Assembly (NCBI GenBank): GCA_035221665.1
Contig: CM069132.1
Span: forward strand, 64,232,001-64,296,000
Direction of reading: 5' to 3'
Length of the DNA: 64,000 nucleotides
DNA from: Okamejei kenojei
Taxonomy: Eukaryota
This document shows, piece after piece, positions 5,906 to 60,420 of the stretch. Under the pieces are notes generated by a model. That model was not told the DNA's origin. It was given only the letters and a program-made list of their open reading frames with translations, and ran no database searches. Each line of letters opens with the position of its first letter. Position 1 is the stretch's first letter. The translations under genes were made by a program, and so were the position numbers.

Positions 5906-6092
5906 NNNNNNNNNNNNNNNNNNNNNNNNNNNNNNNNNNNNNNNNNNNNNNNNNNNNNNNNNNNNNNNNNNNNNNNNNNNNNNNNNNNNNNNNNNNNNNN
6001 NNNNNNNNNNNNNNNNNNNNNNNNNNNNNNNNNNNNNNNNNNNNNNNNNNNNNNNNNNNNNNNNNNNNNNNNNNNNNNNNNNNNNNNNNNNN
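5906..6092. other. Assembly gap (187 N)
   Basis: Run of N. Confidence 1.
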
Positions 6093-57093: not shown

Positions 57094-59673
57094 TTTTTTT
57101 TGTAAAATATTTTTATTAGAAGTAAATACATATTAAGGAATAACATAAAATGAAAAAAGTAAAAAACATATTATTCGTCACATACATTCTTAATATTTTT
57201 AAAGTTTACAGTCGTTCTTATTTATACTTCCATACTTTTTATTATTTTATAACAGAAAGAAAATAGTAAAGACAAATAATAAAAAGAAATAAAATAGAAG
57301 TAGAAAATCGATAAAATGAGTGGAGTATAAAACAAGATATTCTTCATTGGAGATATATGCGTGGTCTATTGTACATAGTTCTTCATCTATTCCTTCATTC
57401 AGGCTTCAGTCAGGCCCTCGAACCGGACCTCCTTGACCCTTTAAGTATTCGAAAAATGGAGACCATATTTCTCTGAATAGATCTAGCTTGTCCAAAAGGT
57501 CAAGTCTTAGTCTTTCCAGATGAAGTGTCTCCGACATTTCTGTAATCCACATTTTGATTGTGGGGGATGTAGGACCTTTCCAAAATCGTAGTATTAGTTT
57601 TTACCAATTATTAAACTATTACCAATAAAAATTATTTGCTGTGTTGTTAGTAGATGATCCGTTTCTATTATTTCTAATATAATTAATTTTGAGTCTGGAG
57701 TCAGATTTGCATTAACTACTTTTGAGATTATGTTAAAAATTTATATCCAAAAATTAGTAATTTTTATACATTTTGTGAATGAATGCGTTAGATTAGCTTC
57801 TAAATGCTGACATTTATCACATATAGCAGAAACGTTTGAAAAAATTCTGTTTAATTTGGATTTCGAAAAGTAATCTATGTAAAACTTTAAATTGTATCAG
57901 GGAGTGTCTGGCATTTAATGAGCAGTGGTGTATATGTTGTAAACTTTCATTCCATACTTCTACACTAATTGTTTGTCTTAATTCATTTTCTCGTGCTTGC
58001 CTATATATTTCCGACTTTGGTAAATCATTTTCCAGTAAAATATTATAAATATATGATATAAATGTTTCTGTATTTGGATATTTATTTAGACATTCATCTA
58101 AAATTTCTGTCTTTCTATTTCTAAAATCCTGTGTGTTTGATTTAACATAGTCTCTAATTTGTAAATATCCAAAGTACTCTTTTGAGTGTAATCCATAATT
58201 TTGTTGTAATTCCTGAAATGAAAGGAATAAACTTTCCCTGTAGAGATCACCTATCTTATTTATTCCATAGTTCTTCCATTTTTAAAAACCTTTATCCATC
58301 ATTGAAGGTTTAAAAGTGATGTTATTTACAATGGGAAGAGCTAGTGGTATACTTACTAATTTTAATGTTTTCTTTAATTGTTTCCAAATACGTATGCCAC
58401 TTTCTATTATTGGATTTCCTCTATAACTTTTTTTATGTATTTTAGTATTAGCAAATAAAATCGAGCTAATTTCAAAAGGTGAACAATCTTCCTTTTCCAT
58501 TTTTAACGTTTGGTTGTTTATCTACTTCTTCCAACCAAAAGTTCATATTTTTAATATTAACTGCCCAATAATAATAGAATATTGACTGGCCTTGAGGGGG
58601 ATACGACATATATTGCCTGAAGTAGATTCATATTGCCCGAGTCGAAGACGAGGGCAATATGGATCTAGTGAGGGCAATATATGTCGTATCCCCCGAAAGA
58701 GGACAGTCAATATTGTTATTATTACCCATTATCAGACATCTAGAGGAAAATCTCAACATCTCAGCTCGGCGGACTTCCACGTAAAATTTAGCCAAAATGG
58801 ACGCGGCAGTCCTTCCTGTCTGCCGTTTGAATATCGACATCTAGACCCTTCTCCATCAAATATTCCTTGAATATCGTTACTGCTTGTTTCGTTGCCTTCT
58901 TCGTGTTCTGCGCGTCTTTGTTTTGTAAAATCTCGTCAAATTGCTGTTCGTCAAAAGTCGCGAACCTCTTCTCGCAGGAGGCTGCCATTTGCTTGTTTTG
59001 TCGAGAACAAATTCTAAATTTCCCACGCAGCGCCACATTGCCAAGTTCCCGGATGTGAGACGAGGGGAATATAAGACTATATTTACCGCTGTTTTAACAC
59101 TTAAAGTCCATAGGCGTTCGCAAGAAAGGGGAATACAAGAAAATATTCCCCTGTTAACCCTGCTGGCACTCAAAACGAAGGGAATACAATTTTGTAAAAG
59201 CATAGCTCAGATGTGTGATATGGGTAATAATAAAACATAAAATTAGGCAATGCAAAACCTCCATTAATTTTTGATTTACATAGATGTTTTTTATTTATTA
59301 TATGGCTCTTATAATCCCAAATAAAGTTGGTAACTATAGAGTCCACTTTCTTAAAAAAATTTTTAGGAAGATATATCGGGATCAGTTGAAACAGGTATAA
59401 TAATTGCTGAAGAAAAATCATTTATATCGCATTAATTCTACCTAGCATTGAAATAGGTAATGTTTTCTAATATAGGATATTCTTAAGTAATTTATTCAAT
59501 AGAGGTGGGAAATTAGATTTAAATAAAGAATCATATCTTTTTGTTACATGAATTCCAAGATATTTGATTTTTTCATTTGCTATCTTAAAAGGATATTGTT
59601 GTAATATATGTGAGTTATTTCCCATTATTGGCATAAATTCACTTTTATTCCAATTAATTCTATATCCTGAAAT
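57094..59673 (-). mobile_element. 5'-truncated L1 LINE
   Basis: ISGYRINWNKSE..KYLGI; GGFALPNFMFYY; poly(A) at 57094; 12-bp TSD CTTGGCTCGCAA at 57082-57093 and 59674-59685. Confidence 0.92.
58574..59225 (-). mobile_element. Non-autonomous Crypton-like (tyrosine-recombinase DNA transposon) element
   Basis: Peptide RFATFDEQQFDEILQNKDAQNTKKATKQAVTIFKEYL then, after a frameshift, ILAKFYVEVRR resembles the N-terminal region of CryptonA/DUF3504 proteins; AATAATA direct repeats at both ends; terminal foldback 58578-58714. Confidence 0.7.
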
Positions 59674-60029
59674 CTTGGCTCGCAAATTACGCGACCTTGT
59701 GGTTGCTTGTTGCTTGAGGCATACGGGCACCATATGGCCACGAGGGGCCGGTCCCACTTAGAAGCGCGGAGGGGTATGGAGTTGTGCGGGGCCGGTCCGG
59801 ACATCACGCAGGACTCCAAAATTCTTGCAGCGAACTAAATCTTCGCGCACCAACGGTCTGTTGCAGAACTGACCGCCAAAATGGGACAGGACCAAGACCC
59901 TGGCGCGACGCAACGTCTCACCTTCAACCTCAGCAGAAGCAGGCAAACGATCGCCAAACCCGGCCTGGGGCTCATGGCCTTTGCGGTCCGGATCCGCTCC
60001 CACTTCTACTCCCAGAGCGGGGCCAAGAA

Positions 60030-60226
60030 AATTGAAGATAGACACAAAATGCAGGAGTAACTCAGCGGGACCGGCAGCATCTCTGGGGAGAAACAATGGG
60101 TGTCGTTCGGGTCAAGACCCTTCTTTTCAAACTGAAGAAGAGTCTCGATACGAAACATCACCCATTGCTTCTCTCCAGAGATGCTGCCGGTCCCGCTGAG
60201 TTACTCCAGCTTTGTGTCCATCTTCA
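60030..60226. mobile_element. Palindromic Penelope pLTR inside the MITE
   Basis: TGAAGATAGACACAAA.. and ..TTTGTGTCCATCTTCA inverted arms around two opposed decayed hammerhead-like cores. Confidence 0.8.
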
Positions 60227-60420
60227 AATGACGTCATGCGCTCCAGACGGCTGTGCGTACGCATGTAATCGCGCCCAACCTTCGCTCGACCGACTCGGCT
60301 CAATGCGACCACGAGGTCGCGTAATCTGCGTACCAAGGACACGCAAGTGGGACAGGCCCTTAAGTCACACTATGTCCCCCTTTACAGCTACAGTATGTTT
60401 TAATTCAGTTCGAGACTATG

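Follow-up and report, generated by a model that had tools for sequence, protein, structure and literature searches.

A gene-less CryptonA derivative in Okamejei kenojei with a long foldback and an inverted copy of its joined ends, and a possible single-strand route of movement

CryptonA elements (PMC3212892; Glomhopper, PMC13465315), as characterized in the available parts of these reports, have a single DUF3504-type tyrosine recombinase, make no target duplication and give rise to abundant deletion derivatives, and the element described here resembles them in these respects. The accessible sections of Kojima and Jurka (2011, PMC3212892) report animal Cryptons without terminal repeats, and those of PMC13465315 and PMC8969392 describe only short direct repeats. 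The published model of Crypton movement, as given in the accessible text of PMC3212892, dates from 2003, and Crypton copy number is reported to rise despite excision (PMC9977147, in the part available). What sets the present elements apart from published CryptonA is the foldback of 137 nt, the inverted copy of the joined ends and a defined target with two arms. We found no published description of this foldback and joined-end layout in Cryptons, and the available text of PMC5753468 and PMC4455052 does not mention a Crypton hairpin; Repbase, Dfam and the supplement of PMC3212892 may describe one.

Parts of this layout have counterparts in other systems. In the bacterial phage CTXphi, which relies on the host recombinases XerC/D, one dif site and the single strand from rolling-circle replication, attP(+) consists of two inverted sites about 90-135 nt apart whose spacers differ in length and which fold into one, as the sites described below are predicted to do; one exchange at the spacer border, with short homology beside the cut, is completed by replication (PMC4246890), a course resembling the one we propose. 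In contrast to CTXphi, the present family encodes its own recombinase and uses many degenerate targets. The integron attC site, used by IntI, may offer a similar likeness in its strand-specific fold, its unpaired spacer bases and its duplex partner (PMC2727003, in the sections available); however, integron cassettes go into one attI platform, whereas the hairpin described here is complete only upon end joining, and GA/GA pairs together with a GNA loop would mark its strand. DIRS elements, according to the available part of PMC13465315, are tyrosine-recombinase elements with an internal stretch complementary to the element ends, a feature that the present family shares, but the latter lacks their reverse transcriptase, RNase H and long terminal repeats. 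A precedent for copy-out is given by the strand-biased circularizing elements of Vibrio, in which tyrosine recombinases circularize one strand and the donor is not emptied (PMC9345347, as far as the accessible text goes); these are bacterial and have four genes, and for the present family copy-out is only proposed. The likeness to Helentron/Helitron2 elements (a hairpin, asymmetric inverted repeats and insertion before T) is superficial. Identity with DIRS/Ngaro was rejected, the parent element described below having no reverse transcriptase or RNase H, and so was identity with Helentron/Helitron2, since the parent has no Rep/helicase.

The window, that is, the whole stretch analysed, comprises 64,000 nucleotides of contig CM069132.1 (64,232,001 to 64,296,000) and includes a run of 187 N at 5906-6092. 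On its minus strand, an ORF2 fragment of an L1-type retrotransposon (57817..59690; identified by paralog identity, with a weak Pfam RVT_1 match, E 0.081) is split by a non-autonomous CryptonA insert of 659 bp (58572..59230, coding sense on the minus strand) that was delimited by empty sites, end profiles and full-length matches. The host fragment is 94.5-96.8% identical to seven paralogs on both sides of the insert. All 7 of the 7 fetched paralogs have an empty site with a single AATAATA, so that the insert is 659 bp long and, as a preliminary description made from the sequence alone had supposed, younger than the host L1 copy. A second insert lies within the same L1 at 59674-60359, with inverted repeats at 59674-59706/60305-60337 and 59745-59759/60345-60359 and a foldback of its own at 60032-60227.

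The preliminary description had bounded the element at 58567..59233 by 7-bp direct repeats AATAATA whose collapse restores the L1 frame. There is indeed an insert at this locus, the two copies of AATAATA are present (58567-58573 and 59226-59232), and across the repaired site the L1 frame reads ...LPNFMFYYWAVNIK... locally, with other stops elsewhere in that L1. However, the true ends are 58572 and 59230, the crossover point being set from 119 left and 113 right ends, and a fixed 7-bp terminal repeat is ruled out: in 67 copies the perfect repeat across both junctions ranges from 0 to 11 bp, with a mode of 1 and a length of 7 bp in 9. The direct repeat of the window copy is a chance target microhomology and not a family property. 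A variable target duplication of the DDE type is likewise ruled out, by the L1 empty sites and the end profiles; this is a CryptonA insertion without target duplication.

The insert has lost its gene. An ATG at 58988 on the minus strand opens a 66-aa peptide (remnant ORF, 58788..58988), of which the first 59 residues are, by copy alignment, the recombinase N-terminus; the early stop results from a frameshift at 58811 that is private to the window copy (1 of 30 copies). The window's own 66-aa and 100-aa peptides have no match in Pfam. At 58761..58763 (minus strand), comparison with parent copies places a deletion joint with 3 nt of microhomology; the roughly 1.5 kb of parent sequence missing here includes the catalytic domain. 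The same joint is present in contigs of four further sequencing runs, two of them flagged as probably DNA. The reading of this ORF as a recombinase N-terminus without a catalytic part was correct, but its supposed likeness to DUF3504 was not, because that domain lies further in and is deleted here.

The autonomous partner suggested at the outset is present in the same genome. From 12 regions picked by protein search we obtained 10 elements of about 2.15 kb, whose 2153-bp consensus contains one ORF of 478 aa that is open over its whole length in 3 of the 10 long copies; the catalytic-region pattern matches at 14 places in the genome. The parent protein matches DUF3504 (PF12012) with 41.8 bits against a cut-off of 29.7 over residues 146-286, and its QRICH1 and Phage_integrase matches are below the cut-off. 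Pfam detects no RT, RNase H, DDE, GCR1_C or Rep/helicase domain in the parent, the single ORF being the recombinase. Among 40 aligned homologs, the catalytic residues R-H-R-H-Y are conserved (R176, H298 and R301 in 40/40, H324 in 34/40, Y333 in 39/40). A structure model of the parent protein (mean pLDDT 74.8) matches QRICH1, Cre and Xer structures, the Cre/Xer-like fold with E 6e-7; apart from an unrelated aldolase, a PDB sequence search returned XerA alone (E 0.67). The Crypton identity first proposed is thereby borne out by the DUF3504 score and the catalytic residues, and the class is CryptonA as judged from protein and behaviour, an assignment that rests on DUF3504 and the nearest named homologs, which are sea-urchin 'KIAA1958-like' proteins with 56-57% identity over the full length. 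The lack of terminal inverted repeats published for CryptonA does not apply here, where an asymmetric inverted copy and a foldback are found; because foldbacks recur in distant relatives, this mismatch looks like a gap in description and gives no ground for exclusion. Two records, P0001 and P0002, are 92% and 78% identical to the parent recombinase, and together with the sea-urchin proteins these sequence identities raise the question of horizontal transfer without deciding it. The window insert is almost certainly a gene-less internal-deletion derivative of this young CryptonA from the same genome.

The insert is one of many copies. A DNA search of the 2.76-Gb genome scored 40 of 1567 candidates, and all 40, the window copy included, are full-length matches at 98-100%; the 30 best copies, a selection that favours young ones, diverge from their consensus by a mean of 0.5% (0-1.35%). 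Searching for an exact 24-mer from the hairpin tip gave 2150 occurrences (control, 0), which corresponds to at least 2150 hairpin tips. Exact joined ends occur in head-to-tail arrays in 123 cases, and in contig data circles are indistinguishable from these tandem junctions. Two of the exact junctions (G000:C3:25923649 and 25923719) are separated by just 70 bp, which points to a tandem unit of very small size. In addition, L066 and L088 are tail-to-tail pairs in which one copy sits inside the end site of another in opposite orientation, and L007 and L036 contain tandem copies that end at position 82, just beyond the hairpin tip. A sister non-autonomous family (family 2; L053, L056, L065, L096, L112) shares the hairpin tip, has its own termini and is often in tandem with family 1.

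The ends of the element and its target were determined from profiles of fetched loci. For the left end, 119 of 150 loci were kept, after removal of 21 tandem and 10 non-family-1 or variant loci; for the right end, 113 of 211 were kept, after removal of 18 that adjoin another element, 74 matches to the internal site and 6 aberrant ones. On the window plus strand, the element starts with TAATAGA and ends with GGGTAATAA, the latter being found in 110 of 119 right ends once internal ones are set aside. Targets follow a symmetric ATAW^T-N5-WTAT pattern with a 6-bp spacer that begins with T, and they are crossed at a single fixed point. In the window, the left arm of the host target, CCCAATAA (consensus ATAW), is at 58564..58571, followed by the 7-nt terminal spacer TAATAGA of the element (58572..58578), at whose 5' border the crossover lies; the far terminus ending in GGGTAATAA, which is the left arm of the joined-end site and the 5' end in coding sense, is at 59208..59230, and the host spacer TAAAAC with the right arm ATAA (consensus WTAT) is at 59231..59240 (all plus strand; from the end profiles and, for the host parts, the empty sites). 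Fixed ends and one target consensus are what a check of end and target conservation, recommended for this element, gave.

The junctions are one-sided. Of 119 left ends, 112 carry the element spacer TAATAG, whereas none of the 113 right ends does. An exact WTATT is found at offset 6 in 46 of 113 targets, and in at most 5 at any other offset. Target base -1 is T in 68, A in 50 and G in 1 on the left, and the right end keeps A in 110 of 113. Homology between element and target is confined to +1 and +2 (T in 106 and A in 73 of 113 targets), the matches at +3 to +6 numbering only 15-41 of 113, and no target spacer matches more than 4 of the 6 element bases. Two nested insertions in other element copies, for which the empty site is known (L095 and L129), have the same crossover, one of them without homology after the cut. 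The sites that they occupy, of the form GGGGAATAT-N6-RTATTCCCC, are held in the element's 5' region, and from their sequence they may be sites where the recombinase binds in autoregulation.

Of 96 solo copies, 81 are canonical at both junctions, and these 81 have captured no flanking sequence. Flanks share 10 nt or more in 17 of the 96 copies, compared with 3.8% of shuffled pairs; some of these are microsatellite targets and others are one-sided duplications that resemble repair. In six loci (L064, L087, L112, L123, L127 and L130), one junction is near canonical; the other has been joined through microhomology, and about 9-30 nt of the target are duplicated, which looks like repair of a half-finished integration.

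The terminal spacer leads into a long imperfect foldback at 58579..58713 (58578-58714 overall; plus strand), recognized from inverted repeats, folding and pair changes in the sister family, whose outer arm doubles as the right arm of the attachment site. Its DNA fold has z = -15.4, and 0 of 200 shuffles is as stable, so that the 137-nt foldback capped by GTC-GAA-GAC of the preliminary description is real; that description counted one GA/GA pair, and there are two (58639-40 with 58650-51, and 58619-20 with 58670-71). The tip, GA / GTC-GAA-GAC / GA, is at 58639..58651, a cGAAg triloop (GAA at 58644-58646) with tandem GA/GA. Beyond the foldback come an internal spacer TGTTA of 5 nt (58714..58718), 2 nt shorter than the terminal spacer opposite it in the fold, and an inverted copy of the far terminus (58719..58741); on the sequence and inverted repeats, the latter and 58706-58718 make a full inverted copy of the joined ends. 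From 58716 to 58741, the window has 14 nt of exact inverted copy of the far end, and other copies have 25-26 nt at 92-96%. The joined ends read GGGTAATAA-TAATAGA-ATATTGAC, and 58706-58727 is their inverted copy with a 5-nt spacer against the 7-nt spacer of the junction; a natural joined-end junction folds as one long stem. Thus the 'split inverted repeat' noted earlier is an inverted copy of the far terminus, as stated, but it is not separate from the foldback: it and the outer stem are a single thing, the inverted copy of the joined ends.

The covariation advised as a check is found in the sister family, in which the terminus, the internal copy and both spacers have changed together while the 7 versus 5 nt is kept, with 8-9 compensatory pairs versus 3-5 broken pairs in five loci. 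The predicted folding energy of family 1 is -69.7 for the plus strand versus -60.0 for the other; in family 2, strand differences are only -2.2 to +1.3. Of 138 internal sites examined locally, 0 serve as an element end or flip point, and two exact patterns for a flipped hairpin have 0 and 2 matches genome-wide, both matches keeping the inner arm unflipped. In L221 and L222 (G000:C654 and C1030, error-rich small contigs that are possibly one locus), the internal spacer has the 7-nt form of the terminal one next to an unflipped inner arm, which could, as a weak indication, be conversion inside the fold.

To see the layout at greater distance, we used the 80 best of 354 confirmed metagenome loci (31-48% aa identity), clustered at 80% into 54 families that are related to each other, so that the following counts are not independent. 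A foldback of at least 80 nt is present in 14 of the 24 families with at least 900 nt downstream and missing in the other 10, compared with 3 of 25 in the upstream control; in all, 18 families carry one. Nine of these 18 have a 5' end that repeats, in inverted form, the arm preceding the stem, and 4 others have less than 250 nt upstream. Terminal 7-nt and internal 5-nt spacers are seen in about a dozen families, read by eye and partly circularly, boundaries being defined independently of the pattern in L153-157, L177-178 and L188-193 alone; L190 has a natural tandem junction. The position of the unpaired 2 nt in the fold varies among families. A search of viral contigs gave 25 pattern matches, none of which was confirmed.

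Marks that may distinguish the strands recur in these families. With our own family counted, 13 of 19 tips on the non-coding strand have the form c-G-N1-2-A-g and 6 are not G-N-A. Symmetric 2x2 loops on the same strand are GA/GA in 36 of 45; a second alignment gave 0 TC/TC and a Y-GA-R context in 32 of 35. Isolated mismatches show no bias of G.T over A.C (14 versus 15). GNA and GNNA mini-hairpins are far more stable as DNA than as RNA (PMC13037366), and tandem CGAG gives sheared G.A pairs in DNA hairpins (PMC10085684), as stated in the accessible parts of these papers. By their sequence, the tip and the 2x2 loops appear to fit such stable DNA motifs on the non-coding strand only.

The family and its parent, the ends, the consensus target, the single point of crossover and the conserved anatomy of the fold are observed. 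On this basis we propose that this gene-less CryptonA derivative probably moves via a circular single strand whose joined ends fold onto the internal copy. By analogy with CTXphi attP(+) or integron attC, we infer, with nearly the same confidence, a folded single-stranded attachment site and one strand exchange. In this scheme, the non-coding strand, which is the window plus strand, would be exposed by replication or cruciform extrusion. The recombinase, acting in trans, would join the right to the left end on that strand only and yield a single-stranded circle, the donor possibly staying in place. The junction GGGTAATAA-TAATAGA-ATATTGAC would then pair with the internal copy and leave the 2-nt spacer excess, and sheared GA/GA pairs and the GNA loop would stabilize the folded non-coding strand. 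This strand would be inserted, by one strand exchange made at the spacer's 5' border, into a double-stranded ATAW^T-N5-WTAT target, for which 1-2 nt of homology would suffice, and host replication or repair would resolve the junction.

The exchanged strand would be the non-coding one because the crossover lies at the spacer 5' border on the window plus strand. The strand predicted from the recombinase is therefore the one that carries the GA motifs, and the two lines are independent. One exchange followed by replication yields exactly the observed one-sided scar. The preliminary description had read the mini-hairpin and asymmetric repeats as a hint of a single-strand or cruciform step, and the one-sided scar, the strand-specific motifs and the layout in distant relatives strengthen it.

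However, the scar alone is no proof of a folded substrate, because the double-stranded attP of VGJphi also gives a single exchange (PMC4246890). The main rival, which we regard as unlikely though still to be reckoned with, is accordingly a duplex circle with one VGJphi-like exchange resolved by replication, in which the hairpin and internal copy are accessory, as protein-binding arms, an excision-aiding cruciform or a priming signal. It explains the one-sided scar equally well (PMC4246890); mini-hairpins are known at phage priming sites (PMC13037366, in the part available), and the strand energy preference is inconsistent between families. On the other hand, it leaves unexplained why an internal copy spans both ends and co-varies with them and why the 7/5 spacer excess recurs, and the 7-bp spacer of the junction is unlike the 6-bp spacer of the target.

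The textbook course, two reciprocal exchanges across a short homologous direct repeat with a hairpin that is RNA-only or idle, is already disfavoured, and we consider it improbable. It is the published model (Goodwin 2003, via the accessible text of PMC3212892), it fits CryptonF insertions (PMC9977147, in the part available), and the 7-bp repeat of the window copy would suit it. However, the repeat has a mode of only 1 bp and the target spacers match the element poorly, as given above; the spacer would be expected on either side, yet no right end carries the element spacer, and the structural motifs sit on the non-coding strand. Still less probable is a Helentron-type HUH rolling-circle enzyme acting in trans, which would read the hairpin and asymmetric repeats and treat the recombinase as cargo. 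According to the available text of PMC8969392, Helentron-type elements have hairpins and asymmetric inverted repeats, start with a 5' T and insert upstream of a T, and the present element begins with T on the plus strand, precedes T in the great majority of targets (106/113) and forms tandem arrays; against this, the parent encodes a recombinase only, with conserved catalytic residues, the target has two arms around a 6-bp spacer, the recombinase of distant families, too, lies between these ends, and the element boundaries do not vary, 81 of 96 copies having taken up no flanking sequence. In the yeast 2-micron plasmid, FLP inversion between sites amplifies the circle; that the internal copy is a second duplex site for such inversion and amplification is hardly credible, since flipped hairpins are absent locally (0/138) and the only two genome-wide pattern matches have the inner arm unflipped, although the predicted circle would have two inverted sites.

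The folded single-strand circle thus remains our preferred reading, and for animal CryptonA as a whole we lean slightly towards the view that one strand is copied out as a circle and integrated as a folded single-stranded site by one exchange. The element is of an ordinary kind with a conserved, apparently undescribed end design, and it makes the Crypton mechanism directly testable: the family offers intact ORFs of a young recombinase, ends known to the base, a consensus target drawn from more than 100 insertions and a structure with putative strand-specific marks that are seen again in distant relatives. If the proposal is true, single-strand tyrosine recombination of the type found in bacterial integrons and CTXphi would also work in animal chromosomes, the strand being selected by sheared G.A motifs. 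This would account for copy gain and tandem arrays, and gene-less Cryptons would become recognizable. It would also point to the ancestral DNA substrate of the domesticated DUF3504 proteins, that is, of the ancestors of ZMYM, QRICH1, KCTD1 and KIAA1958.
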